A DNA stretch of 35,329 bases from a virus: the IMG/VR virus record IMGVR_UViG_3300022917_000007, one strand, 5' to 3'. Position 1 is the first letter of the stretch, and every line of letters starts with the position of its first letter. The notes beneath the pieces were generated by a model. That model was not told where the DNA came from. It saw nothing but the letters and a program-made list of their open reading frames with translations, and searched no databases. Made by a program: the position numbers and the translations under genes. This document shows, in pieces, positions 13,708 through 31,993 of the stretch.

Positions 13708-14432
13708 GATTCGTCTCCCTTTCGCTCGGCCTGGATCTCGATGCGCGCCCGGGCAACCGCCTCGTGAACGTCCGGGCGGCGGCACCCGCAGCGCTCGGCC
13801 AGCTGCGTTGCGAGCCCTTGGACGTTGTCCGATTCGTCCTCGGAGGCGCTCTCGGCGTACTTCGAGAATCCGACGCGAGCGCGCTCGATACCCTCAGCGA
13901 AATTCTCCGACACTGGGCGGGAAAAAGAAGTGGAAGGGCGCGGATCTACCGGCCGACCCCGCTCCGAAAAAAATCGGTCCGCATTTTCATCCGAATTTCT
14001 CAAAATGTTTTGAGATTCGTTCTTGCCCTTCATTAATGCGATGCATTCACTGCATGTAACACGGACGGGGTTGTATGTCACACGGACGGTGCCAACGTGC
14101 CTGATGTGCGGCCTGTCAATGGTGCAGATCGGGATGGGTAGCTCGTCATCTGCGTAGTGCACGACCATCACCGTTCGCATCCACTCAACAGGATTGGGCA
14201 ACGGCGCATCGGGACCGCAACACACCACTACCAAGCGGAAGCCGGGCACGCCATCCTTGTACGACGTGGTGTAGATGCGTGCATCCATGTCGTACCTGTC
14301 CAGCACGGACACGGGCTGAGCGCCATCGTGAAGCGCCTGATCCCAGCGTGATGCGAAGATCGAGCCACCACCACGCGCAACATAATCCGTGATCACCGAG
14401 CGCTTCACAGCAGCACCCACAATGCAGCGCAT
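13704..14432 (-). CDS. Hypothetical protein with atypical composition and an internal AT-rich island
   Basis: 242-aa ORF (alternative GTG start at 14408). Third-position G+C is visibly lower than in neighbouring genes. The segment 13921-14050 is AT-rich and palindromic. Confidence 0.65.
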   Translation of the reverse strand: MRCIVGAAVKRSVITDYVARGGGSIFASRWDQALHDGAQPVSVLDRYDMDARIYTTSYKDGVPGFRLVVVCCGPDAPLPNPVEWMRTVMVVHYADDELPIPICTIDRPHIRHVGTVRVTYNPVRVTCSECIALMKGKNESQNILRNSDENADRFFSERGRPVDPRPSTSFSRPVSENFAEGIERARVGFSKYAESASEDESDNVQGLATQLAERCGCRRPDVHEAVARARIEIQAERKGDES

Positions 14433-14479
14433 GCGAGGTAGGCCACGCCTACCACCATCGTCAACGGATTGATGATCAC
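14405..14479 (-). CDS. Possible 24-aa hydrophobic micro-ORF
   Basis: GTG 14479-14477 overlaps the upstream TGA. Peptide VIINPLTMVVGVAYLACAALWVLL. Its TGA (14407-14405) overlaps a GTG (14408) in the frame of the next gene. Third-position G/C is better than in the competing frame. Confidence 0.3.
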   Translation of the reverse strand: MIINPLTMVVGVAYLACAALWVLL

Positions 14480-14850
14480 AGCAACCCCGCTCCTTTCGCC
14501 CACTCGATGCTCAGGTCCCCCGTTGCGCGCTGCTTGGCCACGCATACCGCGCACGCCAGCCTGCTACCGGGTGAGCGCATCACCGTGCCGTCGTCGAAGC
14601 GCACGTATGCCTGCGTCACCACGCCGATAATCTCGCCCGGGATCCACTCGTGCCCGCACGAGCAACACTCCCCGTTCTCGCGTGCAGCCCACATGGATCC
14701 CGTATTGCCGACCAGCACCATGAGCGCGGTCATGTCGACGTCGAAACGTCGACGGCTCTTGATCGGCTTCTTCACGATCATGCCCAGAAAAGCGGCTGCC
14801 AGCGCCACCATCACGAGCATTACCACGATCTCGATCACGATCTCGGTCAT
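14476..14850 (-). CDS. Membrane-anchored Cys-rich hypothetical protein
   Basis: 124-aa ORF with ATG 14850-14848 after GGGAGA. N-terminal TM segment (IVIEIVVMLVMVALAAAFLGMIV), then CCSCGHEW ... CAVC. Confidence 0.75.
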   Translation of the reverse strand: MTEIVIEIVVMLVMVALAAAFLGMIVKKPIKSRRRFDVDMTALMVLVGNTGSMWAARENGECCSCGHEWIPGEIIGVVTQAYVRFDDGTVMRSPGSRLACAVCVAKQRATGDLSIEWAKGAGLL

Positions 14851-14863
14851 TCGTCTGTCTCCC

Positions 14864-15256
14864 TCAGACTGGCAATCTGGCGAGGATGCGCTCGGCGAGC
14901 AGGACGGCCGCGTGCGCCGGCGCCAGCCCGCTGTGCACCCACTCGGTGAGCGTGCGGTTCCCCTTGCTCGTGTTGCACCGTGCGCACGCGGTCAGCGTGT
15001 TGTCGAGCTGCGAGATGCCCCCGCGGCTGTGCGGCACGACGTGATCGCCTGTCCGGCCCGGCCCGCCGCAGTACCGGCACCGGTAGTTGTCGCGGCGCAG
15101 CGCCATCTCGCGCACGAGCCCCCAATTCGGCCCGTAGACCGCCGAGACGACACTAGGACGATTTGGGCGATACCCGCCCTTCTTGGGATGCTTCGGGCAA
15201 TTCCCGTTCGGCGCGGGCTTTCGACAGACGCCGCAGGGGCGAAGGGGCGAACCCAT
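14864..15256 (-). CDS. HNH endonuclease
   Basis: 130-aa ORF. N-terminal CGVC...CPKH, then YRCRYCGG...GDHVVPHSRGG...NTLTACARCNTSKG (an H-N-H core with flanking Cys pairs). HNH genes near terminase genes are typical of HK97-like packaging modules. Confidence 0.9.
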   Translation of the reverse strand: MGSPLRPCGVCRKPAPNGNCPKHPKKGGYRPNRPSVVSAVYGPNWGLVREMALRRDNYRCRYCGGPGRTGDHVVPHSRGGISQLDNTLTACARCNTSKGNRTLTEWVHSGLAPAHAAVLLAERILARLPV

Positions 15257-16208: not shown

Positions 16209-16591
16209 GGCCGGACGAGCCGAACCGCATATTCGAGCAGGGCTTCGTCGTGGTCGGCCTCGATGGCAGCGAACACATCGTCAGCCGTAATCGCTGCGAG
16301 CTTGTCGAGCCCGTGACGCTCCCACCACGCCCGTACCCGGTCAGGTCGATGCGTAGCCGCTGACGCGAACTTGATCAACAGCTGGTCGGACAGCGCCTGC
16401 GCAATGGCCGCCTTGAGCGTGCGCAGCTCGCCGCCGACGCTGGCCGGGAAATTGAATCCGTCGATCTTCCGATACGCCCGAAAGACTCGGCGCGACGTGC
16501 CGGCCTTGACATAGCCGATGATCGTGTACCCGTCGGCGGCGTAGACGGTCTCGCCGGGCTGCGGGCTGGTGATTCGACGGAAGTTCAGCAT
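16205..16591 (-). CDS. Hypothetical protein
   Basis: 128 aa from internal ATG 16591-16589 (MLNFRRITS...), preceded by GAAAGGA. The longer track ORF would run through the conserved promoter-like element and the helicase stop. Confidence 0.7.
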   Translation of the reverse strand: MLNFRRITSPQPGETVYAADGYTIIGYVKAGTSRRVFRAYRKIDGFNFPASVGGELRTLKAAIAQALSDQLLIKFASAATHRPDRVRAWWERHGLDKLAAITADDVFAAIEADHDEALLEYAVRLVRP

Positions 16592-16628: not shown

Positions 16629-16651
16629 AATCCTAACATGCCACCTAATAG
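16629..16651 (-). promoter_or_regulatory. Copy C of the conserved 23-bp element (candidate promoter/operator)
   Basis: Minus strand reads CTATTAGGTGGCATGTTAGGATT. TGTTAGGAT resembles an extended -10, about 38 nt upstream of ATG 16591. The first half contains the helicase TAG stop. Confidence 0.5.
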
Positions 16652-18324
16652 GTTGTCCAGTACCCGGCCGGCGTCACCGTGGCGACCTCGGGCAGCACGT
16701 CGATCGCGGCCAGCGCCCATCGGGCATCCTGCTGCTCAGCCAGCTGACCGCTCGTGCGCGGAGCGAGGTCGCCGCCCACTGCCTCGCCGCGGTAGATCGC
16801 GGCCACGCGCTCAGCTCGCGTGAGCTTCTTGACGCGCCAGCTGGCCGAGCGGTCGAGCGAAATGCTGGCCCGGGCGCGCGCCGCCTTGTCGCCCCACGCC
16901 ATCGCGGCCGACAGGTCGCACGACGGGTGCACGAGCTCGCCATCCGTCCAACGCACGTCGTAGCGGTCCACGTCGGCCGCCGGCGCCAGAAACACGGCCC
17001 GGCCATCGCCCGCGGGCAGGAACCACACGCCGCGCGGCGAGCGCTGCCACGCCGTGTGCGATGCCGAGAACAGGTCGATCAGCTCGTGCGTGAGCGGGCC
17101 GTCCGCTCCGGTCGGTTCGGGCTCGGCGTCAGCCATACGCCGTTCGGACGGTTCGGCGTCGGGCTCGTCGAGCTCGTATTCGAGCAGGTCATCGTCAAGC
17201 TCGGGCTCGGGCACGACGCCCTCAAGATCGACGATCGAGCGCAGTCGGTGCCGCGACGTCGCGCCGACCACGTCGAGCACGAGGCAGTCGCTCTGACCGG
17301 GGTACGTCCGCAGCCCGCGGCCGGCCATCTGCGCGAAGAGCACCTCGCTGGACGTCGGCCGCCCGAGGATGACCATGTCCCAGATCGGCACGTTGGTGCC
17401 CTCGGTGAAGAGTCCGACGTTGCACACCACGTCGTACTCCCCGAGCCGGGCGCGTCGGATGATCTCCTTCCGGACCGCCTTCGGCGTGTCGGCGTCGACG
17501 TGGATCGAGCGCAGGCCGTGCTCGGCGAACACGCGCGCCTGCTCTTTCGAGAGCTCGACGCTCGGCAGGAACGCGACCCCGTGCCGGCCGCGCCCGTGTT
17601 CGAGCACGGCCCGGGCGACGGCCGCCGGCGCGAGCGCGTCGCTCATGGCCTGCGCAACCGCCCGGTCATCGAGCCCGCTCTCGGACGTCCGCGAGGTGCG
17701 CACGCGCGACAGGTCGAGCCCTTCGATCTTGACGCGGATCCCCCGCGGGGGCAGCAGGTACCCGTCGCGGATCAGCTCGTTGAGCGTGACGATCTCGGCC
17801 GGCTCGCCATCGAACGTCTCCCCGAGCGACAGCCCGTCAGCCCGGCCGAGCGTGGCCGTGACGCCAAGCAGCAGCGGGCCGTGATCGGTGAAGACACCGA
17901 GCTCGCGCAAGATCGTCTGATAGCTGGCAGCCGCGATGTGATGGCACTCGTCGACGATCACGAGCCCGGGCCGGCGCCCGTTCAACAGCCCGAGCGCCCC
18001 CGGCTTCACCGCGGTAGCGACGCTCGCCACGATGACCGCCCGGTCCACCTCGCGGCGACCGCCCTGCAGCACTCCCACGCTCAACCCGGACGATGCGCCG
18101 AGCAACTCCTGCTCGGCTTGCTCGACGAGCTCGGTACGGTGCGCCAACACGACGGCCGGCGCCCCCGCGGCCACGCAGTCGATCGAGACCTTCGAGAACA
18201 CGAACGTCTTCCCGCCGCCGGTCGGGATCACGATCGGCACGCGCCGGCGCCCCTCGCCAAACGCGGCATACGTCTTGTCGATCACACGTTGCTGATACGG
18301 CCGGAGCGGCAGCGTCTCCGCCAT
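16645..18324 (-). CDS. SF2 DEAD/DEAH-box helicase
   Basis: 559 aa from ATG 18324-18322, which overlaps the upstream TGA (ATGA). Motifs PTGGGKTF (I), VIVDECHH (II), VTAT (III) and QMAGRGLR (VI), plus a ~150-aa C-terminal extension. Confidence 0.9.
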   Translation of the reverse strand: MAETLPLRPYQQRVIDKTYAAFGEGRRRVPIVIPTGGGKTFVFSKVSIDCVAAGAPAVVLAHRTELVEQAEQELLGASSGLSVGVLQGGRREVDRAVIVASVATAVKPGALGLLNGRRPGLVIVDECHHIAAASYQTILRELGVFTDHGPLLLGVTATLGRADGLSLGETFDGEPAEIVTLNELIRDGYLLPPRGIRVKIEGLDLSRVRTSRTSESGLDDRAVAQAMSDALAPAAVARAVLEHGRGRHGVAFLPSVELSKEQARVFAEHGLRSIHVDADTPKAVRKEIIRRARLGEYDVVCNVGLFTEGTNVPIWDMVILGRPTSSEVLFAQMAGRGLRTYPGQSDCLVLDVVGATSRHRLRSIVDLEGVVPEPELDDDLLEYELDEPDAEPSERRMADAEPEPTGADGPLTHELIDLFSASHTAWQRSPRGVWFLPAGDGRAVFLAPAADVDRYDVRWTDGELVHPSCDLSAAMAWGDKAARARASISLDRSASWRVKKLTRAERVAAIYRGEAVGGDLAPRTSGQLAEQQDARWALAAIDVLPEVATVTPAGYWTTY

Positions 18325-18713
18325 CACGAGAGATCCGGGAGCGGGTAGATCCGGACCGGTATGCCGGCGTCCGCGGCGTAGCGCACGCAGTGCCACGTGC
18401 CGACCGACCCGCGCCGTGGGAACGCGAGGCAAACATCGGCACCGCGATCAACCATCTGAACGTTGCGCATCACGCCGGCACGCTTCCCGTAGCGCTCCCA
18501 ATCTGCCGGGTACGACTCGGCATCGAGTCCGCCGGCCAGCGCCCAAAACGACGCAATCGTGTCCACGCCACGGGCGCCACCATGAACGATCGTCGAGCAC
18601 CGATGCGCACGAAATGCGTCGTCCTGCGCCTGCTCAAGCGCGGCCACCACGATCGATTCGGCAACGCCATCGATATCACGCGACCCTGTGACCAGAATCC
18701 GGACCGACCTCAT
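18324..18713 (-). CDS. DUF2493 / SLOG-family protein
   Basis: 129 aa from ATG 18713-18711 (ATGA overlap with the upstream stop). Pattern ILVTGSRD...IVHGGARGVDT...PADWERYGKRAGVMRN...DVCLAF...GT...GIPV matches DUF2493 as I recall it. Confidence 0.65.
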   Translation of the reverse strand: MRSVRILVTGSRDIDGVAESIVVAALEQAQDDAFRAHRCSTIVHGGARGVDTIASFWALAGGLDAESYPADWERYGKRAGVMRNVQMVDRGADVCLAFPRRGSVGTWHCVRYAADAGIPVRIYPLPDLS

Positions 18714-19170: not shown

Positions 19171-19593
19171 TCACACACCGCTCGGTTGCCTGACGATCTG
19201 GCAGTCCCCGAGCAGGCGCAGATATCGGTCGCCGCGCTGTACGACGAGCAGCAGATCACGATCGTCCCGCTTGATCTGCCCGCTCGCGATGATCGATTTC
19301 CCGGACGTCCCGAGATCGAGCCGTCGCGACCACCAGCAGTCGGTCACCCTGCTGCGCGCCCCGACCGCGTACACGCCCGGCGGCACCTGCTGCGGCACGC
19401 GGTACGTCCCGGCGCCCTGACGCATCATCGTCATCCCCGGCAGCTCCACCGGGACCGTCACGGTGACCGCAGGTGCCGGCGTGGCCGCCTTCGTGGCCGG
19501 CTCGCCGTGGATCTGCCAGCCGGCCACGAGCCCGACCCCCATCGCGATCATCCCGAGCAGCGACGCCAGCCACAACGTCATCCGTTCACGCAT
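19171..19593 (-). CDS. Membrane-anchored two-Cys extracytoplasmic domain protein (paralog of 23090..23554)
   Basis: 140-aa ORF. N-terminal TM (LWLASLLGMIAMGVGLVAGW), then GTYRV...VPPGVYAV...CWW...SIIASG...LLGDC, which aligns with the C-terminal domain of the 23090 protein. Confidence 0.75.
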   Translation of the reverse strand: MRERMTLWLASLLGMIAMGVGLVAGWQIHGEPATKAATPAPAVTVTVPVELPGMTMMRQGAGTYRVPQQVPPGVYAVGARSRVTDCWWSRRLDLGTSGKSIIASGQIKRDDRDLLLVVQRGDRYLRLLGDCQIVRQPSGV

Positions 19594-19912
19594 CGGTGTC
19601 GACCTCGATCCCGATAGCAGCCAGCGCGATCTCGATGGCCTCCCTGGTCGGACCGGGCATCGCGTGCTGGAACGCCCACGTCATCGTGTCGAGTTCGCGC
19701 AGGCTGACCCGCCGGGTGTGCTTCGACTTCTGGGCGATGCGGCGCTTCGTACGGACGCCCTCCGCGACGACGGCCAGCCCGATGCTGATCGCGTACAGGG
19801 CGCGGGTCAGTGTGCTCTCGCCGCGGTGGTTGAGGTACGCGTCCAGCGGCAGCGCCAGCGCCAGGAACACGAGCAGGCGTCCCAGCGCGCTATCGAAGAT
19901 TCGGTTGATCAT
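19586..19912 (-). CDS. Small membrane protein
   Basis: 108-aa ORF with ATG 19912-19910 after GGGAGA. Two hydrophobic segments (LLVFLALALPL, LYAISIGLAVVA). First gene after the AT-rich gap. Confidence 0.75.
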   Translation of the reverse strand: MINRIFDSALGRLLVFLALALPLDAYLNHRGESTLTRALYAISIGLAVVAEGVRTKRRIAQKSKHTRRVSLRELDTMTWAFQHAMPGPTREAIEIALAAIGIEVDTDA

Positions 19913-19948: not shown

Positions 19949-19977
19949 AGCCTATTAGGTCGGGTGTTAGGTGTCAA
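19949..19977 (-). promoter_or_regulatory. Canonical sigma-70-type promoter candidate: TTGACA-17 nt-TAGGCT
   Basis: Minus strand reads TTGACA (19977-19972), a 17-nt spacer, then TAGGCT (19954-19949). Lies ~36 nt upstream of ATG 19912 with GGGAGA in between. Confidence 0.6.
19952..19974 (+). promoter_or_regulatory. Copy B of the conserved 23-bp element, on the strand opposite to the flanking genes
   Basis: Plus strand reads CTATTAGGTCGGGTGTTAGGTGT. It overlaps the -35, the spacer and the -10 of the minus-strand promoter candidate. Confidence 0.5.
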
Positions 19978-20023
19978 GTTGGAAATCGTTTCCATTGTTA
20001 CTGTTAGTAATCAATCTCTAACC

Positions 20024-20109
20024 TGTACCGTGTGTACCAAGTTACTTTGTTCCTCCTCCTCACGTGTGTGTATAGCTGTGGAACAGATCTTCTTGGTACA
20101 CGCGGTACA
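20024..20109. repeat. 18-bp inverted repeat pair (17/18 match) carrying TGTACC iterons; candidate origin/operator
   Basis: tgtaccgtgtgtaccaag (20024-20041) against the reverse complement of cttggtacacgcggtaca (20092-20109). The 50-bp spacer has a TTCCTCCTCCTC tract. Lies inside a 205-bp AT-rich non-coding gap just 3' of the primase gene. Confidence 0.75.
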
Positions 20110-20117
20110 CGGTTTTG

Positions 20118-22673
20118 TTATCCCTGGTCAGACTCGGTGCCGGTAATAAATCGGACACCCCACCATGCCCACACGGCACCCGCGGTATTTTCGACCGGCG
20201 GGACGTATGGCGACTGCACGTGAGTGCCGTGTGACGGACGGTAGGATCGCGTCCAATCGGCCGTGATCCGGGCGCGGCGGTGACTTACCCGATTTGTCTT
20301 CGTTGTCGTGTGCTCGGCGAAGATCGGGGCGAACCGCCGCGCTGACCATTCGTGTTGATTCTGTGCCTGTAGGTAAGCGTTGAAGTCCGTCAGCATGTCG
20401 GTCGCGAGGATGAACGACCCCTCCGCCGGGCGCAGTCGCTCCGTCCAGAACCCCTCGATCGGGTCGCTCGCGGCCCGCCACGCCGCGGTGTCCACCTGCA
20501 CGCTCTCGGGCAGCGCCGGCATCCCGGACGCGTTCAGCTCCACCGCCCCCGCCACGAGCCACGCGAGCACGGCCTCACGCTGTCGCTGACCGTCTCGCAG
20601 GCGGTCGCGCAGGCTGGCGTCGCCCCGGCGGTCGTCCGGGCCGTCCAGCGGCTCGTGAGGCTTCCGGAAGCGGTAGGGGAAGCGCACGAGCGCCAACCGT
20701 CGCCACGTCCCGTGGTCGGTGTCGGTGACCAGCGGGATGGGGTTCGTGCTCAGGAAGAACGAGTGCGTCGCGTCGAACTCGACCGAGTCCTGACGCATGT
20801 ACCGCGCCTTGATCGTGGGCGTGCCGATGATGTCCTTCAACCTCTTGACGTTGACCCGCGCCTCGTCCGGCAGCTCCTCGGTCAGCGCGAACCGCGCGCC
20901 CCGGAAGTCCATCATTTCGGTAGGGTGCGCGCCGGCTTCCGCGAGCAGCACGCGGTCAGAGATGTACGTGCCGTACGTCCCGACCGCCTGCTTGATCGCA
21001 TTCAAGATCGTCGACTTCCCGTTCTCTCCCCCACCCTGCAAGATCAGCAGCAGATCATCAGGCGTCATCCGACCCGTGATCGACTGCCCGAACCGGAACC
21101 GCAGCCAGCTCGCGACGTCGTCACGAACCGCGCCGAGCGCAGCATCCCAATCCGGGTGCGTGGCGCCGGGGAGGTACGCAGTCCCCGTGATCTTGGTCAA
21201 GCGCATCGCGGGGTCGTGTGGCGCCAGCTCGCCCGTGCGCAGATCAACGATCCCGTTCGGGACGTTCAGTAGATCCGGGTGCGAGTCGAACGCGGACGCC
21301 TCCACCGCCAGCGCTCCGCGGCACAGCTGCGCGATCGCCTTGAGCCGGTAGGCGCTTTCTAGGCCTAGGAGTAGCCGAAAAGCTTCTTTGTCGGCGCGCA
21401 CGAACACGTTCGCGACCTGCACGTTGACGTACTGCGTCACCCATTGCCGGACCGTCTCGACGACGAGCTCTTCGCTCGTCCGGCGCCAGCGCTGCCCGTC
21501 CCAGCGAAACCACCCGAGCCCCTCCGCCCAGCAGTGCGAGCCGTGCAGCAGTTCGTCACAGAGCACCTGAGCGATCTTGGAATCGGTCAGGGTGTCAGCC
21601 TGCAACGGCTCATCGGGTTTTGGGGCCGGAATCACCACCGGGGGCGTGCCGGCCGGCAGCGCCACGAGCATGCTCTTGGGCGCGCACGCGCACAGCTGAC
21701 GCGGCGCCGGGTTGTCGGCCATGGCCAGCCCCACCGCCCCGGTCAGCAACCGCTCCCACTCCGCCTCGCGGCCCGGGCCAACCGCCTGCTCGAACGCGAC
21801 CCCGAGCGCCAGCAGCGCCTCGCCCGCGCCGGCGTGCCCCTCGCCCCCGTACGCGGCCAGCACGCGCGCGACGTCCCGGGCGACCTCGTGCCGGCCCTGC
21901 TCGCCCGCCTGCAGCTGGCGCCGCGCGGCGTCGAGCGCGGTCGCGACCCGCGGGCAGCCCGGCGCCGGGCGCAGCAGTTCCCACCACGCCGCGAGCGCGG
22001 CCGAGCTGGCGTCGACCTTCTCGGTCCGGTCGTACGAGAGCGCGAGACCGCGCACCCACGACATCGGCAGATCGGGCAAGTGCAGGACGTTGGGGATCAT
22101 GTCGGGCCACTCGTGCGGTCCGGGCTCGTCATCCGTGCCGCTCAGTCGCCAGCCGTACATCGCACCGTCCGCGTCCGGGTTGGTGCTCGGCCAGACGACC
22201 GCGTACCGGTGACCGTGCTGCACGAGTTCGATGCCCTTGCCTGCCTCGCCCGGCCAGTTGACCGGCCGGCCGTCGAGCTCGGTCGGCACGCGAAACCAGT
22301 AGATGCCCGACGGCGCCGGGCGGGCGCCGCTTACCCATGTGGCCGGGAGCGGGCCGTAGAGCTCGATCAGACGCTGCAGCTCAACGTCGCCCGTCTTGCG
22401 CTTGCCGTCCTTTTCGTACGCGTCGACGTCGAGCCCGAGCACGCCGGCCGGCGCCCGGAGACCGATATTGCGGCCGCCGTGCGTCTCGATCCACGCCTCG
22501 ATATCGGCCCCGGACGGATCCGGTTTGCCGTGGCCCGTGAACCCGTTTGGTGGTGGCGACTTGCGGCCCGGCTTGTCGCCGAGCGGCAGCACGCCGGCCC
22601 AGCCCGCGGCCCGGTACAAACGCGCAGCTCGTGCGTAAGGGCCGGTCACGGTAGTATCGCCGTCAAGCAGCAC
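20118..22673 (-). CDS. Bifunctional primase-polymerase / D5-P4-type SF3 helicase
   Basis: 851-aa ORF with GTG 22673-22671 after GGGGAGA. N-terminal prim-pol pattern (GWAGVLPLG...NIGLRAPAGVLGLDVDAY...HGHRYAVVWPS). C-terminal P4-family primase/helicase with Walker A GGGENGKST and LTEELPDE. Confidence 0.9.
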   Translation of the reverse strand: MLLDGDTTVTGPYARAARLYRAAGWAGVLPLGDKPGRKSPPPNGFTGHGKPDPSGADIEAWIETHGGRNIGLRAPAGVLGLDVDAYEKDGKRKTGDVELQRLIELYGPLPATWVSGARPAPSGIYWFRVPTELDGRPVNWPGEAGKGIELVQHGHRYAVVWPSTNPDADGAMYGWRLSGTDDEPGPHEWPDMIPNVLHLPDLPMSWVRGLALSYDRTEKVDASSAALAAWWELLRPAPGCPRVATALDAARRQLQAGEQGRHEVARDVARVLAAYGGEGHAGAGEALLALGVAFEQAVGPGREAEWERLLTGAVGLAMADNPAPRQLCACAPKSMLVALPAGTPPVVIPAPKPDEPLQADTLTDSKIAQVLCDELLHGSHCWAEGLGWFRWDGQRWRRTSEELVVETVRQWVTQYVNVQVANVFVRADKEAFRLLLGLESAYRLKAIAQLCRGALAVEASAFDSHPDLLNVPNGIVDLRTGELAPHDPAMRLTKITGTAYLPGATHPDWDAALGAVRDDVASWLRFRFGQSITGRMTPDDLLLILQGGGENGKSTILNAIKQAVGTYGTYISDRVLLAEAGAHPTEMMDFRGARFALTEELPDEARVNVKRLKDIIGTPTIKARYMRQDSVEFDATHSFFLSTNPIPLVTDTDHGTWRRLALVRFPYRFRKPHEPLDGPDDRRGDASLRDRLRDGQRQREAVLAWLVAGAVELNASGMPALPESVQVDTAAWRAASDPIEGFWTERLRPAEGSFILATDMLTDFNAYLQAQNQHEWSARRFAPIFAEHTTTKTNRVSHRRARITADWTRSYRPSHGTHVQSPYVPPVENTAGAVWAWWGVRFITGTESDQG

Positions 22674-22760: not shown

Positions 22761-23027
22761 CTACGCGCCCGCGGACGTCCGGCGAACGAGCTCGGCGCGG
22801 CCGATTTCGAGGCGTAGCTCGTACTCGTTCGGGTATCGATCGGCGTACGTTCCGATGGCGTCCTCGAGCAGGTTGCGCGCCACGGCTGCTTCGCTGCGGG
22901 CCGCATCGCGGATCTTCGATCCGAGCAGGAACGCTCGGGTTTCCTCGGTCATCAGCACGTTGACGTGCTCGGTGAACAGGGCGGGCTCGGCGGCCGGCGC
23001 GACGCGCGCCGTGGTCTCGTTGGTCAT
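22761..23027 (-). CDS. Ribbon-helix-helix-like small regulator candidate
   Basis: 88 aa from ATG 23027-23025, 6 nt after a TGTTAGGTT element (leaderless geometry). HVNVLMTEETRAFLLG ... SEAAVARNLLEDAI fits a strand-helix-helix layout. First gene of the minus-strand series. Confidence 0.45.
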   Translation of the reverse strand: MTNETTARVAPAAEPALFTEHVNVLMTEETRAFLLGSKIRDAARSEAAVARNLLEDAIGTYADRYPNEYELRLEIGRAELVRRTSAGA

Positions 23028-23033
23028 GGTCAC

Positions 23034-23042
23034 AACCTAACA
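23034..23042 (-). promoter_or_regulatory. Extended -10-like element TGTTAGGTT for a leaderless RHH-gene transcript
   Basis: Minus strand reads C-TGTTAGGTT-GTGACC-ATG. The -10 end lies 6 nt from the ATG, so the predicted start site is at or next to the A of ATG. Confidence 0.5.
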
Positions 23043-23060
23043 GGTCACCTCGCTTGCGCG

Positions 23061-23083
23061 CTATTAGGTCGTATGTTAGGTTC
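23061..23083 (+). promoter_or_regulatory. Copy A of the conserved 23-bp element; leaderless promoter candidate for the plus-strand operon
   Basis: CTATTAGGTCGTATGTTAGGTTC. TAGGTT (23077-23082) is followed by 7 nt and then ATG 23090. Confidence 0.55.
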
Positions 23084-23089
23084 ATCGGC

Positions 23090-23554
23090 ATGACGGAGAA
23101 CCTGAGCGGGCCGTACGGCCCCGAGAACCGCCCCCGCGGCTTCACCAAGATGCACGGCGTCGCCCTGTTCATCGTGCTCGCGCTGATCGCGGCCTGCTGC
23201 CTGAGCATGATCGCCACGTTCGGCAGCAGCGACATCACACCGATCAACGACGAGCCCGTGATCGAGCAGACGTTTGCCCCCGGCCCGACGGGATCGCCGA
23301 AGACGAAGCCGGCCGCCGCCGCGACGACGATCCGCGGCGATGACGTCGTGCACGTTGGCGAAGACGTGCCGGCCGGAACGTACCGCGTGGTGACCGCAAT
23401 CGACGATAACGGTTGCTACTGGGCAAAGACCTCCGACGCGGAGGGATCCAAGATCATCGACAACGGCATCCCGTCGGGTGGTCGGCCTCAGGTGACGCTC
23501 AAGACCGGGCAATGGTTCACCTCGAACGGGTGCCCGGACTGGCGCAAGAAGTGA
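23090..23554 (+). CDS. Membrane-anchored two-Cys extracytoplasmic domain protein (paralog of 19171..19593)
   Basis: 154 aa from ATG 23090 (MTENLSG...). TM segment VALFIVLALIAACCLSMIATF, a Pro/Ala linker, then VPAGTYRV...CYWAK...KIIDNG...WFTSNGCPDW. Confidence 0.7.
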   Translation: MTENLSGPYGPENRPRGFTKMHGVALFIVLALIAACCLSMIATFGSSDITPINDEPVIEQTFAPGPTGSPKTKPAAAATTIRGDDVVHVGEDVPAGTYRVVTAIDDNGCYWAKTSDAEGSKIIDNGIPSGGRPQVTLKTGQWFTSNGCPDWRKK

Positions 23555-24276
23555 GCGAGCACCGGAAACTCCGACTCGTGCCGCCGGCGCGCGACTTCCC
23601 TGAGAGCGTCCGGTGCCCGTTCTACCCGTGCACGGCCCGCGTCAGCCTGAAACGAGAGCGCGCGGTCGATCTCGGTACGCCCGCGATGATCGTGATCGTG
23701 ACGCACGACGTGAGTCCCGACGAATGGTTTGGCGAATGCCCGGCGAGCGGGATGGGGTGGCCGACCAACGAGGTCGAAGACTCGACCCTGATCGAACAGG
23801 CTCGGGTCTTCGACGTGGTGAAGCGTTCCCGCAACGAGCGCCAGAAGACGCAGACGTTGCAGGAGAACCCGCGGCCGGCCGGACGTCACCCCCTGACGCC
23901 GATGCCGAGCAGCGACCGTCCGAAGTACTTCGCCAACAGCCAGCCCGGCGATCCGAAACAGATCGGTCCGCTCGGGTACGAACAGATCAAGCCGGCCACG
24001 CCGGCACAACCGAAGGGAGACGGAGTGGCATCCGTTGCAGAAGTGCAGGCAGCCATCAACATCGCCAACGAGGCGATCGAAAAGACGTCGCAGGCGCTCA
24101 GCCAGGCTCTCGCGGACGCGGACGACGCGGCCCGACAGATGGCGTGGATCCGGTCCAACGTGGTCGACCCGCTCGGGAGCGGGATGGTGTCGGCCGTGCG
24201 CGAGGAGATTCCGAACCTCGTCGCGTACTGCGCGCAGGCCATCGAAATGAACAACGAGTACCGGAGGTCGATGTGA
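23551..24276 (+). CDS. Hypothetical protein
   Basis: GTG 23551 overlaps the upstream TGA (GTGA). 241 aa with a Cys-containing N-terminal part (RCPFYPC...ECP), a Pro-rich linker and a helical C-terminal ~70 aa. The start is uncertain. Confidence 0.6.
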   Translation: MSEHRKLRLVPPARDFPESVRCPFYPCTARVSLKRERAVDLGTPAMIVIVTHDVSPDEWFGECPASGMGWPTNEVEDSTLIEQARVFDVVKRSRNERQKTQTLQENPRPAGRHPLTPMPSSDRPKYFANSQPGDPKQIGPLGYEQIKPATPAQPKGDGVASVAEVQAAINIANEAIEKTSQALSQALADADDAARQMAWIRSNVVDPLGSGMVSAVREEIPNLVAYCAQAIEMNNEYRRSM

Positions 24277-24557
24277 CCGCCAACCTCGAAGCGCTCGGCG
24301 CGTCGCTCATGGCCGTGATCCGCGAGATCGCGAAGGCGCAGAGCTCGGCCAACACGACCATCGATCGCGGGGGCGAAGCCATCCGCCTGCTCGGCATGGT
24401 CAGCGACGGCAGCAGCAACGAGCTGCTCAGCAACGCGCTGGCCAACCTATCGACCGCCAACGACGACATCGAGACCGCGATCGGCAAGCACATCATGGCG
24501 GTCGAGCTGGTCGCGGACTACGCCCGCGCCCGCGGTCTCACGGTTGAAAAACACTAG
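24273..24557 (+). CDS. Small helical hypothetical protein
   Basis: GTG 24273 overlaps the upstream TGA, with GGAGG 5-6 nt upstream. 94 aa. Confidence 0.65.
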   Translation: MTANLEALGASLMAVIREIAKAQSSANTTIDRGGEAIRLLGMVSDGSSNELLSNALANLSTANDDIETAIGKHIMAVELVADYARARGLTVEKH

Positions 24558-24836
24558 GTGCCCACCTGGGAAGACACTCACGTCGGAGACCTCGTGCTCG
24601 GGTATGACAACCGCGAGTATTGGGTCTCCGACGTGTGGCCAGCCGAAGCGCGCGGCCCGGTCGTGACGATCGTCGACAACCTGACGAACGTGGCGACCGG
24701 GCCGTTTCAGCCGCCGCCGGGCACGCCCATTACCGTGCTGCGCAGCGCAGACATGACGATCGAGAGCGAGGCGTTCACCGTGCTGCACGCGGCCGGCCTC
24801 GATCCGCAGCTGATGAGGGAGACGTACCAACCATGA
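24558..24836 (+). CDS. Hypothetical protein
   Basis: GTG 24558 lies immediately after TAG 24555-24557. 92 aa. Its TGA overlaps the next ATG (ATGA). Confidence 0.65.
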   Translation: MPTWEDTHVGDLVLGYDNREYWVSDVWPAEARGPVVTIVDNLTNVATGPFQPPPGTPITVLRSADMTIESEAFTVLHAAGLDPQLMRETYQP

Positions 24837-26191
24837 CCAATCCGACCCCGCCCCGGATCGTGGGCCGCATCGGCAAGATGCAGGTCAGCAACGGCCGATA
24901 TCACGACGGCGTGCGCTCGTACCAGCGCGTGACCAACCTGCTCAAAGAGATCGAAACCGACACGTGGAATCTCGACGAGTGGGACCGCAATATGCACGTG
25001 ATCGGGTTGGCAATGCGCCCCGATCTCGTGCTCGGCGTAGCTGCTGCTGCGCAGTACGACGAGCACGGAAAGCTGACCGCAGAGGCGAAGAGCACCCTGC
25101 GCGGTCTGCGGTCGCAGGCGGTCGCGGCAGCCAAGAGCAAAGCCGGCGCCAATCAGGGAACCGCGGTACACACGGCGACCGAGCGAATCGATCTCGGCGA
25201 GACCGTCGAGCAAGTGGCGCTCCCGTACCCGTTCGATCTCGACCTGATCGCCTACCGCGATCTCGTCGCGGCGATGGGAATCCGGTACCGGCCCGAGCAC
25301 ATCGAGCGCTCCGTGCGCAACGTGGTGACCGACAACGTGGGCACGTTCGATCGGCTCGGCGAGAGCGAGATGCTCGTGCAGATGGGCGTGCTGGCGCCGG
25401 GTGAGCTGATCGTGGTGGATGTCAAGACCGAGGACGCGCCGCTGTACAACTTGATGCACATCGCGCCGCAGCTGGCCGAGTACGCGAACGCGGCCGACAT
25501 GTTCGTGCCCGAGCCGACCGCGGACGCGCCGAGCGCCGGCCGGTACGAGCCTATGCCGAACGTGAGCCGGGTGGCCGGGCTGGTGATACACGTCCGCAAC
25601 GGGCGGGCTGTGCCGTACCTGATCGACCTGACCTCCGGATGGTCGAGCGCCCTGCGCGCGGCCGAGCAGCGGGACGCGATGAAGGCAAGCAAGATCAAGC
25701 TCGGCGAGCCCGGATGCTGGGCGGTCGCCGTGCCGATCGATCTGCCGGCGCCGGCGCGCGTGGTCGACTCGGCCGCGGTCGCCGCGAGCGCAGCGCAGCA
25801 CGCCATCGAGCGTGGTGGCCAGCGGTGCCTGACGTGTCAGAAGCCGATCACGCCCGGGCGTCCGCACGCGTGCCCGGCGCCCGCGGCGCGGCCGGCTGAG
25901 ACCGCGGTCGTACAGCAGGCGGTCACGGGGGCGGACGGCAACGTGACGTGGCACGTCATCCCGGACGGCCCGCAGCCGCTCGAAGCGATGCTCTGGGCCG
26001 ACATCATGGCCGCGCCCGATCTGCCCACGCTGGCCACGCTGTTCGAGCGCGCGAGCGCTCAGGGGATCGAGTGGGCCGGGCCGATCGCGAACGCGGGCAT
26101 TGAGCGGTCCCGGATCGTGCAGTGCCCGCAGCGCGAGCTCCACAACGTGGGCGCGTGCGCATGCGGATGGCGCGAAGGGCTGGCGCCCTAA
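24833..26191 (+). CDS. PD-(D/E)XK (RecB/Cas4-like) exonuclease with a C-terminal extension
   Basis: 452 aa from ATG 24833. Motif series GTAVHTATE ... FDRLGE ... LIVVDVKT ... QLAEYANA fits a D...(D/E)xK...QxxxY nuclease core. Later Cys clusters CLTCQK...HAC and CPQ...CACG. Confidence 0.7.
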   Translation: MTNPTPPRIVGRIGKMQVSNGRYHDGVRSYQRVTNLLKEIETDTWNLDEWDRNMHVIGLAMRPDLVLGVAAAAQYDEHGKLTAEAKSTLRGLRSQAVAAAKSKAGANQGTAVHTATERIDLGETVEQVALPYPFDLDLIAYRDLVAAMGIRYRPEHIERSVRNVVTDNVGTFDRLGESEMLVQMGVLAPGELIVVDVKTEDAPLYNLMHIAPQLAEYANAADMFVPEPTADAPSAGRYEPMPNVSRVAGLVIHVRNGRAVPYLIDLTSGWSSALRAAEQRDAMKASKIKLGEPGCWAVAVPIDLPAPARVVDSAAVAASAAQHAIERGGQRCLTCQKPITPGRPHACPAPAARPAETAVVQQAVTGADGNVTWHVIPDGPQPLEAMLWADIMAAPDLPTLATLFERASAQGIEWAGPIANAGIERSRIVQCPQRELHNVGACACGWREGLAP

Positions 26192-26210
26192 TAGGCGACG
26201 TGATAGGTTT
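26188..26210 (+). promoter_or_regulatory. Copy D of the conserved 23-bp element
   Basis: CTAATAGGCGACGTGATAGGTTT. The first half contains the exonuclease TAA stop. TGATAGGTT resembles an extended -10 ahead of the tRNA-like element and the 26386 gene. Confidence 0.5.
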
Positions 26211-26263
26211 GCTTTACCCCCGCAGGGCTGGCCGGACCAAGTTTGGATGGCTCTGCGGGACAA

Positions 26264-26335
26264 GGGGCGATGGTGTCGATTGGTAGGCACACGCGACGGC
26301 CGCGCGAGGTTGGGGTTCGATTCCCTAGCGCCCCA
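26264..26335 (+). tRNA. tRNA-like element (non-canonical; possible pseudo-tRNA or processing signal; GGC at the anticodon position)
   Basis: Canonical T arm TGGGG-TTCGATT-CCCTA. Acceptor GGGGCGA/GCGCCCC (6 of 7 pairs) plus discriminator A. D arm GTGT-cgattggtag-GCAC with GG. But the anticodon stem has only 4 clean bp (CGCG/CGCG), the loop ACGGCCG lacks U33 and a purine at 37, the variable region is short, and no CCA is encoded. Confidence 0.4.
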
Positions 26336-26385
26336 CGAGAGCGATCACCCGATCGTGACTCACGGTCCCGAACTAAGGACACCGA

Positions 26386-27072
26386 ATGACGAACCCGTTC
26401 CTCCCGCCGCAGCAGGGCCAGCAGGCGCCCGCGGCGCCGGTCAACCCGTACGCGCAGCCCGCGCCGGCGCAGCAGCAGCCGAACCCGTACGCGCAGCCGC
26501 AGGCCGCGCCGCAGCAGTACGCCACGCCGGCGCAGAATGGCGGATCGCCGTGGCCTCCCGGCGCGACCGGCGGCGCCCCCGGCCTGACGGCCACGCCGGG
26601 GCAGTTCATGCGGCCCGGGCCGCCGCCGCCGCCCGGGCAGGGTAGTGGCCCGCGGGTCGGTGACCTCAAGTCCCGGCTCCTGTTGATCCTGCCCGAGCGC
26701 TGCGACCGCGGAGTCGCGTCGAAGTACAAGAACGACGACGGCTCGGTCAGGGTGCAGGACAAGATGATCGCAACGTGTGTCGTGCTCGATGGTGGACCGC
26801 TTCGGTGGGGCGCCACGCAGCAGAACCCGCAGGGCTCGACCGGCAACGTGCCGTACGTGATCAAGGGTCTCTGGATCCTTTCGTCCGGGCTGATCGCGCA
26901 GCTCGAAGACGCGCTCGCGCTGCGGCTCTCGGGCGGTCCCGGGATCGCGCTCGGCCGCCTCTGGCAAGCCGGGCCGGCCGGCAACGACCCGTACGTCCTG
27001 GCCGACCCGAGCCCGCAGGACGCGCAGCTCTACGACCAGTACGTCTCGCAGGTCAACCCGTTCGCGCTCTGA
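26386..27072 (+). CDS. Pro/Gln-rich N-terminal low-complexity protein with a globular C-terminal domain (unknown function; SSB-like role is only a guess)
   Basis: 228-aa ORF with ATG 26386 after AAGGA. The N-terminal 90 aa are PQ/PA-rich (NPYAQP repeats). The C-terminal domain starts VGDLKSRLLLILPE. It ends in QVNPFAL. Confidence 0.75.
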   Translation: MTNPFLPPQQGQQAPAAPVNPYAQPAPAQQQPNPYAQPQAAPQQYATPAQNGGSPWPPGATGGAPGLTATPGQFMRPGPPPPPGQGSGPRVGDLKSRLLLILPERCDRGVASKYKNDDGSVRVQDKMIATCVVLDGGPLRWGATQQNPQGSTGNVPYVIKGLWILSSGLIAQLEDALALRLSGGPGIALGRLWQAGPAGNDPYVLADPSPQDAQLYDQYVSQVNPFAL

Positions 27073-27090
27073 TCGATGCGCGAAAAGCTG

Positions 27091-27128
27091 ACGTGGCGCC
27101 AAGCAATGGACGCGGCTTGGCGCCACGT
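27091..27128 (+). terminator. 14-bp perfect-stem hairpin (attenuator/terminator candidate)
   Basis: acgtggcgccaagc (27091-27104), a 10-nt loop, then gcttggcgccacgt (27115-27128). Starts 19 nt after the 26386-gene stop. No U-tract. Confidence 0.45.
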
Positions 27129-27208
27129 TGACGAGACCGGTTTCCGGTATCGGGTCTGGCGCGATTCCCTCGGGGGATGGAACGCAACGCGAGCGGGAAG
27201 GGGGAGTC

Positions 27209-27304
27209 GTGCGCGAAAGACTGGCTGACGCTCAGCTGATGATCGGGCTCGTGACGATCGTGGTCGCGGCGGTCGCGTTCGTGCTGGCGCCGGTATGGAT
27301 CTAA
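27209..27304 (+). CDS. Possible 31-aa transmembrane micro-protein
   Basis: GTG 27209 lies 3 nt after GGAAGGGGGAG. Peptide VRERLADAQLMIGLVTIVVAAVAFVLAPVWI. Overlaps the rusA-like ATG by 10 nt. Confidence 0.4.
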   Translation: MRERLADAQLMIGLVTIVVAAVAFVLAPVWI

Positions 27305-28140
27305 TCCTGCGCGTCTACGGGCGGCCGGCGCCCGAGGGGTCGCACGAAACCGGCCAGAACGGTTACGTGATGCACAGCAGCGCGTACCTGCAACCGTGGC
27401 GCTCAGCTGTGAAGGGGGCCGCCTTCCGGCTGTACCGCGACCTGGGGATCGCGCCGGCCGCGTTGCCGCTCATCCCGTACCCGTTCCCGTGTTGGGTGAC
27501 GATCACGCACTACCTGCTCGACGATCAGTGTCGCGCCGCCGGCACGGACGAGCCGACCGGAAAGCCGGACGGTGACAAGCTGCTGCGGGGCACGATCGAT
27601 GGACTCGGCGAGGGGCGCGTGTTCGGCGACGACTCGCAGATCCTCGGGCACCGAACGTTCAAGGCGCGCGGCGAGGCGGCCGGTGCGCTGATCCAAGTAA
27701 CAGCAGTTCGCCCATGGTGGGCGGGCGACGAAAACAGGGAGATCCAAGTGGCTGAGCAGTTCATCCCGAACGGGCAGTTTCAGCTCGTTCTCTCCGCGGT
27801 TGGCACCAACGGCGACGGCGACCGCACGTGGGAGACCGTGATCGACGTGACCGACACGCCGGAATCGATCGTGCAGACGTGGATGCCGGGCATCGCGGAA
27901 CGGCTGTGGAACGCCCCCGCGTCGCTGGCGCCGGCGCTCTCGCCGAGCACCGAGACCAAACCGCAGCGCGGCCGACCGCGTAAGGCCACTGCTGCGCCCG
28001 CTGAGCCGGCCGCTCCGGCGCCGGAAGCGCCCGCGGCGCCCGAGGTGCCCGCGGCGCCCCCCGCGCCCGCCACGGTGGCGACGGCGCCCGCGCCGATCGA
28101 GGTGGCGCAGCGCGTCAACCCGTTCGCGCGACCGGCCTGA
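27295..28140 (+). CDS. rusA: RusA-like Holliday junction resolvase fused to a C-terminal extension (AT-hook, Ala/Pro-rich tail)
   Basis: 281 aa. N-terminal VYGRPAPEGSHE ... PDGDKLLRGTIDGLGEGRVFGDDSQI matches the RusA catalytic pattern. The C-terminal half carries RGRPRKA (AT-hook), AP repeats and a terminal RVNPFARPA. Confidence 0.7.
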   Translation: MDLILRVYGRPAPEGSHETGQNGYVMHSSAYLQPWRSAVKGAAFRLYRDLGIAPAALPLIPYPFPCWVTITHYLLDDQCRAAGTDEPTGKPDGDKLLRGTIDGLGEGRVFGDDSQILGHRTFKARGEAAGALIQVTAVRPWWAGDENREIQVAEQFIPNGQFQLVLSAVGTNGDGDRTWETVIDVTDTPESIVQTWMPGIAERLWNAPASLAPALSPSTETKPQRGRPRKATAAPAEPAAPAPEAPAAPEVPAAPPAPATVATAPAPIEVAQRVNPFARPA

Positions 28141-30768: not shown

Positions 30769-30864
30769 TCATGCTCCGCCTTTCCAATCCCCGGCACGGA
30801 CGAGCCCGGTCTATGACGTCCGGCGGGGGCTAGGCCGGTCGCGTTTATTTGGGTGAGGCTATGC

Positions 30865-31245
30865 CTAAAGCACACCATTTGCTAATAGGACAATTACGCC
30901 AATCAGCGCAACGGCCGCAGCAATTCCGGCATACACGCGGGTGACGAGTTGTCGTGCTCCGGCGCGCTCACTCTCCAGCGATTGCACCCTGATGACGACG
31001 GCATTGATCAGCTTCTCTTGTGCCTCGAGTTGCTCCGTCGTGGCGACGCCGGTCCGCAGCTCGTTGAGCAGGGTAAGCCGATCGTTGACGCTGAGTTCCG
31101 CCTTCTCGACGCCCTCTTTGATCGACATGCGGGCCGCTTCGAGTGCCTGATTCTGCGCGTCGAAACGCTGCTGATAGCGCAGATCCCGTTCGTCGGAGAG
31201 GTCACGGGCGTGCGCAATCGCGTTCCACAGCGCCCGGGAGAGCAT
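30865..31245 (-). CDS. Coiled-coil protein with a C-terminal membrane anchor
   Basis: 126 aa from ATG 31245-31243 (MLSRALWNAI...). Heptad-like central region and a C-terminal TM segment (VYAGIAAAVALIGVIVLLA). Confidence 0.7.
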   Translation of the reverse strand: MLSRALWNAIAHARDLSDERDLRYQQRFDAQNQALEAARMSIKEGVEKAELSVNDRLTLLNELRTGVATTEQLEAQEKLINAVVIRVQSLESERAGARQLVTRVYAGIAAAVALIGVIVLLANGVL

Positions 31246-31252
31246 CAGCCGG

Positions 31253-31993
31253 TCAGTCCTGCGCCCGGCGCGCCGCGTCGTCGTTGACCGCCTTGACCAG
31301 CGCCGGCACGTCCACGCCACCAACGGAGATCTTGTCTACCTTGGCGCTCAGCGCCTCGATTGCCCTGCCCTGTGCGGCCAGCACGGCAGTCAACGCCGAG
31401 AAGCGCGCGGCGATCTTGGCATCGATCACGGTGGACAGGCGGTTGCGCTCGGAGTCGGACAGGTTATCCAGAGAGTTGCGGAATTCCACCCGGACCGCGT
31501 CCGCGATGCTCGCTTCGTTCATAGTCAGCTCTCCCAGCTTGAAATCGAACGTGATGTTGCGGTCGGCCACTTCGGTGTACGCGCCCTCGAAGTGAGCGTG
31601 CTCAGTGTGCGGTGACGGGCCGTCGTACGGGATGCCCTCGAACCCCTCGCGCTCGTGGTACATCGTCCGGTTGTAGATGATGAACCGGAGCACGCCGGCC
31701 ACACCGGGCAGTTTCCGGATGTGATCGACAGCGTGCTGCATAGTCACACCGTCGGGCGACCTGAGGTCGTCGTCAGCGTCCCACGCGCGTATGTCCGGCG
31801 TGCTGTCCGCGTCGCCCGACCACGACGGCTTACCAGCGTTACCGGGCGAGTCGTCGGGGTTGTGGCCGGACGTGCCGGCCTGGTGGGCGGCATCGCCGAT
31901 CGTGCCGTCACTGGCCCGATCGCGGTTCGGAAACGCTTCGTCGAACTGTCCGCGAAGGTTGGCCAGCCCTGGCGTGAGCTTCGGCGCGGTCAT
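31253..31993 (-). CDS. Putative endolysin (LAS-type zinc peptidase-like motifs) with a coiled-coil C-terminal part
   Basis: 246 aa from ATG 31993-31991 (ATGA overlap with the fibre gene stop). SDGTIGDAAHQAGTSGHNPDD and HTEHAHFE provide H-x3-D and H-x-H motifs. Lies between the tail fibre genes and the membrane-protein cluster. The family assignment is tentative. Confidence 0.45.
   Translation of the reverse strand: MTAPKLTPGLANLRGQFDEAFPNRDRASDGTIGDAAHQAGTSGHNPDDSPGNAGKPSWSGDADSTPDIRAWDADDDLRSPDGVTMQHAVDHIRKLPGVAGVLRFIIYNRTMYHEREGFEGIPYDGPSPHTEHAHFEGAYTEVADRNITFDFKLGELTMNEASIADAVRVEFRNSLDNLSDSERNRLSTVIDAKIAARFSALTAVLAAQGRAIEALSAKVDKISVGGVDVPALVKAVNDDAARRAQD

Follow-up and report, generated by a model that had tools for sequence, protein, structure and literature searches.

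Predicted early promoters with a putative embedded operator in the genome of an uncultured high-GC siphophage

The uncultured virus IMGVR_UViG_3300022917_000007 carries a 23-bp element that recurs at several gene boundaries, one of them at 16629-16651. This raises the question whether the element is a promoter, the binding site of a regulator or both, and which protein might recognize it. We analyzed the window, i.e. the whole stretch of DNA of 35,329 nucleotides, and compared it with related genomes. The reading that we prefer, with a probability of roughly 0.65, is that of early promoters of a high-GC siphophage which would be served by the housekeeping sigma factor of the host and would contain an embedded operator for a dimeric protein of the phage. 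A promoter combined with an operator had already been proposed in the initial annotation of the window, and it was still the best reading after the comparison with nine related genomes.

Genome context and occurrence of the element

The window has a G+C content of 68% and represents a putatively complete, circularly permuted siphophage genome of roughly 35 kb. The host of this phage is most likely actinobacterial. An early block on the minus strand, which includes the p88 gene, the primase and the helicase, extends from 23033 to about 13000 and continues into the terminase, portal, protease, major capsid and tape-measure genes. The late genes wrap round to the tail and fibre genes (35329-28197). 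A rightward island (23090-28140) contains an exonuclease and a RusA-like gene. Neither an integrase nor an HTH domain, a classical repressor or any other DNA-binding domain was found when most of the called window proteins were searched with Pfam and PHROGs. The G+C content is lowered in the stretch 13900-14500 (0.61 for 14001-15000), which includes an A/T-rich tract near 13960-14040 and has no ORF with strong third-position GC bias. This stretch may be a recently acquired gene or non-coding DNA such as a packaging site.

A megablast of the window against INPHARED gave 0 matches, and no cultured or near-identical relative was found. The closest proteins of cultured phages shared at most 40% (primase) and 35% (helicase) identity. 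Scanning IMG/VR with the exact motif resulted in 73 single matches, with contig L042/L094 (35,307 bp, 70-77% DNA identity to the window) as the sole true relative; the remaining matches were located in low-GC contigs and were rejected as chance. The clade set analyzed here comprises 10 genomes: the window, L094 and L254-L261, the latter eight being chosen via homologues of p88. All nine relatives are metagenomic and 33-38 kb in size. Gene order is conserved across the clade, and the genes carried between the conserved promoters differ strongly from member to member. The motif was absent in the distant primase relatives L074-L093. The p88 homologue of contig L042/L094 (P0009) is labelled 'Brevundimonas sp.' in NCBI and UniRef. 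Since this contig is a phage genome with actinophage-like proteins we doubt the label, and the contig was probably mis-binned from a metagenome.

All four 23-mers reported by the initial annotation (A, 23061-23083; B, 19952-19974; C, 16629-16651; D, 26188-26210) are present in the window. Their occurrence is not random: the pattern CTAWTAGG-N5-TGWTAGG with up to 2 mismatches had exactly 4 matches compared with 0.00 expected from 100 dinucleotide shuffles. The 9-mer CCTAWTAGG (up to 1 mismatch) occurred 6 times, compared with 0.74 expected. Conservation and positional bias, for which a motif search in related genomes had been suggested, were checked with a PWM of the 23-mer in the 10 clade genomes. 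This gave 86 strand matches (0.05 in shuffles) corresponding to 53 elements, and 50 of the 53 lay mostly outside called genes, in genomes with 9.4% non-coding DNA. Apart from a few extras specific to single lineages, the clade sites form four orthologous sets corresponding to A, B, C and D. The nine relatives carry the element at the same four gene boundaries as the window. Anchored alignments revealed the element together with the six bases upstream as conserved islands amid diverged flanks.

Promoter signature and individual sites

Several features identify the elements as very probable promoters of the housekeeping-sigma type. The 38 forward-type sites of the clade were collected with a pattern that fixed the -10 positions T1, A2 and T6. 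A -10 of the form T-A-n-n-n-T with variable positions 3-5 was found in 38/38 of them, a count that is not independent evidence because the collecting pattern fixed these three bases. Independent evidence comes from the orthologous A and A' sites, which swap TAGGTT for TACCTT, TATGTT, TAGCTT and TAACTT and keep TA...T. TANNNT is the housekeeping -10 of Actinobacteria. The resemblance of the 3' half of the element to an extended -10, noticed earlier in the window, extends to the clade sites, apart from those that lack the TG.

The 5' half of the element had been judged too close to serve as a -35, and rightly so. The actual -35-like hexamers, which the initial annotation had overlooked, are located just upstream of each element and 17-18 bp upstream of the -10 (Table 1). 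At other clade sites the hexamer is TTGCCA or TTGACA, and the spacing is alike in the relatives. TG was present in 19/19 sites with a poor -35 (3/6 matches); sites that lacked TG had -35 matches of at least 4/6. The B-type sites carry TTGAC[A/G/T] as -35, and TG was missing there in 9/10 genomes.

An ATG or GTG follows the -10 at a distance of 6-7 nt in 19 of the 38 forward sites (about 6% expected). This spacing was found in all ten A sites, which are part of the 38, and in all ten A' sites, which are outside the 38. Leaderless mRNAs are common in Actinobacteria. To judge from the spacing, transcription probably starts at or next to the ATG of these sites and would give a leaderless mRNA, a geometry that fixes the expected position of the transcription start. 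With B assigned to the minus strand, all elements are co-oriented with their downstream genes.

Table 1. Positions of the predicted promoters, their boxes and neighbouring features in the window
Feature	Position	Strand	Sequence and remarks
Predicted promoter A	23054..23082	+	-35 TTGCGC 23054-59; spacing 17 bp; -10 TAGGTT 23077-82
Boxes of A	23060-68 (left), 23072-80 (right)	+	left GCTATTAGG; centre TCG; right TATGTTAGG (TG 23074-75)
Predicted promoter A' (fifth, partial copy)	23025..23055	minus	predicted promoter of the p88 gene; partial copy at 23034-23055
Right box of A'	23044->23036	minus	CCTGTTAGG; -10 TAGGTT 23039->23034
Left box of A'	23055->23047	minus	AAGCGAGGT; degenerate in the window; CCTAGG in most relatives
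Segment of A' before the ATG	23042->23034	minus	TGTTAGGTT, then GTGACC, then ATG 23027->23025 (leaderless geometry)
Predicted promoter B	19949..19977	minus	-35 TTGACA 19977->19972; spacing 17 bp; -10 TAGGCT 19954->19949; no TG
Predicted promoter C	16630..16659	minus	-35 TGGACA 16659->16654; 18-nt spacer; -10 TAGGAT 16635->16630
Left box of C	16652->16644	minus	CCTATTAGG; includes helicase stop TAG (16645-16647); TG 16638->16637
Predicted promoter D	26181..26209	+	weak -35 TGGCGC 26181-86; spacing 17 bp; -10 TAGGTT 26204-09
Left box of D	26187-95	+	CCTAATAGG; includes exonuclease stop TAA (26189-26191); TG 26201-02
tRNA-like element	26264..26334	+	downstream of promoter D
p88 gene (88-aa protein)	22761..23027	minus	first gene of leftward early operon, upstream of primase/polymerase
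Prim-Pol/D5-type primase	20118-22673	minus	early block
Helicase	16645-18432	minus	early block

The distance of 7 nt between promoter A (end of the -10 at 23082) and the ATG at 23090 agrees with the initial annotation. From the -35 through the left box plus the next T the sequence of A is invariant in the 10 genomes, and its -10 differs only at hexamer positions 3-5 (TAGGTT, TACCTT, TATGTT). A' was aligned in the 10 genomes as well; TG, TA and the final TT are invariant and the spacing to the ATG is kept. A and A' are arranged back to back, with the upstream region of A' overlapping the -35 of A. The whole A/A' region holds four boxes (23036, 23048, 23060 and 23072) in a 12-bp register.

B had been taken as a rightward unit. 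Read rightwards it has no -35, and its hexamer TAGGTG is without the final T; instead, a conserved promoter TTGACA-N17-TAGGCT is found on the minus strand. Its 17-nt spacer CCTAACACCCGACCTAA holds both boxes, and it is followed by a conserved SD (GGGAGA) and the ATG at 19912 of a leftward gene (19586-19912, minus). Orthologues of B with TTGAC[A/G/T], a spacer of 17-18 nt and TAGnnT, co-directional with the downstream genes, were present in 10/10 genomes (TTGACA in L094). B matches both strands because the element is symmetric. Upstream of promoter B, directly past the stop of the primase/polymerase gene, lies a long hairpin on the minus strand (20015-20118, arms 20024-20053 and 20080-20109; dG -44.3 kcal/mol, z -7.7). 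In L254, L255, L259 and L094 this position is occupied by stems of 18-19 bp that are built from short tandem repeats and are quite unlike in sequence (z -3.3 to -7.0); the structure is kept here, the sequence is not. This hairpin could be a terminator that closes the A' operon, or a replication origin.

Promoter C is the only match of a generic sigma-70 scan (9/12, with TG). The mRNA from C is predicted to have a leader, the ATG at 16591 being located about 38 nt downstream as described before. That C and D include the stop codons of the upstream genes was also correct (Table 1). The -35 and the distal box of C (16644-16659) are encoded in the last helicase codons (...Y-W-T-T-Y-stop). This C-terminus is conserved in most of the clade members compared (L094, L254-L261); therefore these bases are under both protein and promoter/operator constraint.

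Promoter D is predicted to drive the tRNA-like element and the gene 26386-27072. The tRNA-like element was not called as tRNA by ARAGORN, and the Rfam gathering scan gave no match; weak tRNA-like matches were mascRNA (E 0.06) and tRNA-Sec (E 0.45). At the orthologous position tRNA-Ile and tRNA-Lys were found in L254 and tRNA-Ala in L256, and odd tRNA calls with a 4-base anticodon in L257 and L259. The element of the window looks like a decayed or atypical tRNA. Outside the early region a lone box GCTAATAGG is present at 30881-30889 near the end of the ORF 30865-31323 (minus). It is overlapped by a possible minus-strand promoter TTAGCA-N18-TAGCCT upstream of a gene starting at 30771. This box could be a half-operator on a lysis/late promoter, or chance.

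The 21-bp dyad and its reading as an operator

Each copy of the element had been described as two wTAGG half-sites in direct repeat, 12 bp apart. The 12-bp spacing was confirmed; the direct repeat has to be replaced by two self-palindromic 9-mers (CCTAWTAGG) that form a 21-bp dyad. The clade consensus CCTAWTAGGTSACSTGTTAGG reads CCTAWTAGGT-S-ACCT(A/G)WTAGG. A direct repeat was seen because each arm is itself a 9-bp palindrome. The arms of the consensus form an inverted repeat with a single mismatched position, where a G makes the TG of the extended -10.

Within the window, the upstream half of copies B, C and D is the 9-bp palindrome CCTAWTAGG. Among the clade genomes the window has the most degenerate dyad, and the inner right arm differs in 4/4 copies. 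Due to this degenerate right arm the symmetry became clear only from the relatives. Two sites of L254 have the form CCTAWTAGGT-C-A[C/T][C/G]TATTAG, without TG and ending in the -10 TAGACT; a perfect 9-bp inverted repeat is retained in the L254 site CCTAATAGGTCACCTATTAGACT. As the dyad fills the spacer and overlaps the -10, we read it as the predicted operator within each promoter and consider this assignment probable.

A dyad of this kind might also act on the RNA level, as a hairpin in read-through transcripts that serves as a processing or termination signal. A 9-bp stem is possible from the clade consensus, and C and D are located at the 3' ends of the upstream genes. However, the four window copies fold no more stably than shuffled sequence (z -0.58 to +0.94), no T-run is found downstream, and the box centres are complementary in only 15/38 forward-type sites with no compensatory pattern. 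An RNA hairpin or intrinsic terminator was excluded on these three grounds, and we consider a role of the dyad in RNA highly improbable.

The two boxes differ in their relation to the promoter. The proximal one coincides with the extended -10; the distal one covers roughly -31 to -23, a stretch in which sigma does not contact specific bases. Nevertheless, the distal box is nearly invariant across the four paralogous sites in 10 genomes, amid diverged flanks. In the sets A, C and D the conserved part is the distal box; in set B it is the proximal ACCTAT, and both boxes are retained there despite the inversion of the promoter relative to them.

Distant lineages, found via the helicase (33-46% identity), share this architecture and have palindromes of their own, in which both arms changed together. 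L095 has the arms CTAGCAGG/CCTGCTAG in the site TTGCAA-tac-CTAGCAGGTTGCTGCTAGACT. The arms of L148 are CTAACAGGT/ACCTGTTAG, and L148, L149, L136 and L143 share the site TTGACA-c-CTAACAGGTACCTGTTAGACT; the promoter 35-mer of the L148 type is absent from cultured phages. For L156 the arms are CTAGTAGG/CCTGTTAG (site CTAGTAGGTTCCTGTTAGGGT), and L144 has the site CTAACATGTACCTGTTAGGCT. A concerted change of the arms is to be expected if they are recognized by a dimeric DNA-binding protein whose specificity differs between lineages. The box sequences were not found in the literature.

The elements might be promoters only, with a spacer conserved by optimisation of promoter strength or by cassette copying or gene conversion within or between phages, and without a dedicated regulator. 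Every promoter feature is present, TGnTAnnnT explains the right box fully, the dyad is degenerate at its inner positions in the window, and the DNA-binding protein is no more than a candidate. Still, this explanation appears unlikely, since it accounts neither for the near invariance of a distal box free of sigma contacts, nor for its mirroring of the proximal box, the concerted arms of the other lineages and the two boxes kept by B in inverted orientation.

Further candidates for the conserved role of the boxes are binding of a host factor and recombination, i.e. module-exchange points between phages. Boxes arranged in a similar way are also present in lineages where no p88 homologue was detected, and the variable gene content between the promoters would be expected of repeat-promoted module exchange. 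Recombination between repeats has been proposed for Cluster O phages (PMC4351075). Against a single host factor, boxes that are lineage-specific fit better with specificity encoded by the phage, and the pattern of the iron box (IdeR/DtxR) was unmatched: its 19-bp palindrome TWAGGTWAGSCTWACCTWA gave 0 matches with up to 3 mismatches and was rejected. Recombination would be a by-product that leaves the strict placement inside promoters unexplained. Both possibilities are improbable in our view.

The remaining alternative retains the direct repeat. According to it, wTAGG-N7-wTAGG would be bound head-to-tail by an RHH protein, and B would point rightwards and drive a small RNA in the gap 19975-20117. 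The 12-bp direct spacing is real, the divergent region does hold four boxes in this register, and the p88-homologue promoter of L095 contains a true direct repeat (CCTGCTAGG-TTTT-CTGCTAGC). Furthermore, RHH proteins such as MetJ and omega are textbook examples of tandem-repeat binding. The direct and the inverted reading are indistinguishable because each box is palindromic, but the clade consensus is a clean dyad, and B as a rightward unit is contradicted by its leftward promoter, a reading conserved in 10/10 genomes. A tandem operator of this type therefore has little probability.

According to the preferred reading, that of promoters with an embedded operator, the housekeeping sigma factor of the host would read the early promoters by a -35 TTGnnn, a spacing of 17-18 bp, TGn and the -10 TAnnnT. 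The promoter-distal box would fill the upstream spacer, and the proximal box would be the extended -10 itself, with the TG made by one A-to-G change. A dimeric DNA-binding protein encoded by the phage would occupy the boxes; the candidate for it is the RHH-like p88, which would bind as a dimer of dimers. Once bound, it would keep RNA polymerase from all early promoters jointly, including A' of its own gene; such a block might serve temporal shut-off or immunity. The sequences themselves show that the sites are real, that they bear promoter-type constraints, a positional bias and dyad symmetry, and that bases dispensable for the promoter are conserved, whereas the positions of the transcription starts, the repression and the assignment of a regulator are inferred.

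The candidate regulator and comparison with known phage systems

The protein encoded at 22761-23027 had been suggested as an RHH-like regulator. It is still the best regulator candidate; its RHH class is suggested by a sequence pattern, and the fold matches that go with it are non-significant. As the operator-binding protein p88 is a candidate to which we give somewhat less than even odds. The family, whose proteins have 70-130 aa, consists of 37 close homologues, all metagenomic, with 60-100% identity and many of them on contigs of 33-38 kb, plus about 30 remote clusters. In every context examined, the gene of this family was found in the divergent control region that precedes Prim-Pol.

The most conserved segment of p88, LTEHVNVLMTEETRAFLLGSK ... 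SEGAVARALLEDAI, matches a strand-helix-helix pattern, which makes p88 an RHH-like candidate by sequence pattern. In the AF2 monomer (pLDDT 82.7) residues 1-27 are coil, followed by helices 28-41 and 46-64 and an extra helix 66-87. The top Foldseek matches in PDB and BFVD were nearly all RHH proteins, but with non-significant E values of 1.4-3.5. No Pfam match was obtained among 36 close or 31 remote members, and p88 had no sequence match in PDB. Within the DNA fetched, no p88 homologue was found in L148, L156 and L144 despite their similar operators. An HMM match of p88 in L148 (E 0.001) was spurious, a wrong-frame ORF inside another gene, and was discarded.

The closest functional parallel appears to be the Arc/Mnt system of P22. 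In the immI region of P22 the RHH repressors Arc and Mnt bind 21-bp operators at the divergent, overlapping promoters Pant and Pmnt. Both systems have a 21-bp site of two-fold symmetry overlapping the core promoter, divergent promoters back to back and an adjacent small protein of RHH type (here a candidate) acting as a dimer of dimers with autoregulation (here proposed). There is no sequence similarity between them, and p88 is a candidate for the RHH fold that Arc and Mnt have. Moreover, immI is one locus, whereas the present operator recurs at 4-7 promoters of the early region, and its proximal half-site is the extended -10 itself.

The CIRs of the Streptomyces phage phiC31 are repressor operators found in numerous intergenic copies beside early promoters. 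This temperate phage has a defined repressor, encoded by gene c, and early promoters of a type other than the housekeeping-sigma one. One palindromic operator reiterated at early-gene boundaries, with one regulator for the whole early region, would be common to both phages. The promoters studied here are, unlike those of phiC31, canonical; their operator is merged with the -10 and TG, and an integrase was not found.

The stoperators of Cluster A mycobacteriophages (L5 gp71) are asymmetric sites of 13-14 bp which are oriented with transcription, occur in about 20-30 copies per genome, also inside transcribed regions, and block elongation. They share with the present element the many copies of one site in the early region and the overlap with an early promoter (there one copy). 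The stoperator class was rejected, as the present sites are symmetric, confined to promoters and number 4-7 per early region.

Corndog and its relatives (Cluster O mycobacteriophages) carry a 17-bp palindrome TGTTCGGNNNCCGAACA in 34 copies together with predicted SigA-type promoters and divergent leaderless transcripts, where +1 is the first base of the start codon (PMC4351075). Their repeats are mostly away from promoters with many in coding DNA; the authors considered a role in transcription unlikely and proposed a dimeric protein as binder (PMC4351075). The present clade resembles Cluster O as a group of high-GC phages with predicted SigA-type promoters, a lineage-specific palindrome and a proposed dimeric binder. 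Here, in contrast, 50/53 elements are intergenic and every well-scoring one lies within a promoter.

Compared with the known systems, the element differs in three respects: the operator and the extended -10 are fused, occurrence is limited to promoters, and the boxes are self-palindromic. The kind of control element is already familiar in phages and its sequence version is new, a placement that the comparison of genomes supports well; current concepts of phage regulation are unchanged by it. The constraints on promoter and operator are merged in one 21-bp sequence, and the drift of this sequence between phage lineages is visible. For an uncultured clade without cultured relative the analysis provides a ready transcription map of five predicted promoters, three of them with leaderless geometry. 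The compact promoter/operator module with its candidate small regulator could perhaps be reused as a switch in high-GC hosts.

A joint reading goes further and is tentative, with the odds clearly against it. It would define a broad and so far undescribed group of uncultured high-GC phages in which the operator is a mirror-duplicated extended -10 and the p88 family binds arrays of 9-bp boxes in competition with sigma. Under this mirror duplication p88 and about 36 clusters of relatives, for which no Pfam model exists, would bind boxes in the 12-bp register, and the binding protein would compete directly with sigma for the -10/TG. Since every box is a palindrome in itself, the promoter could be inverted, as in B, without loss of regulation. 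Changes in specificity would then arise through concerted change of the arms, bounded by TGnTAG.

Boxes of mixed type were observed in remote lineages of the p88 family. L262 has the box type CCTAATAGGTAGCTGCTAGGGT (7943, 12597 and 15362) with a left arm of the window type and a right arm of the L095 type, and L263 has the box type CTAGCAGACCTAATAGGTTTTCTGGTAGGTT (626 and 3316). In L095, CTGCTAG is found within 289-360 in both inverted and direct arrangement. A comparison of the predicted DNA-facing strand residues of p88 homologues with the boxes, which covered L095, L262 and L263 only, found CCTAATAGG in L262 (HVN) as expected, and in L263 (QLS) too. The mixed boxes suggest a modular evolution of box specificity.
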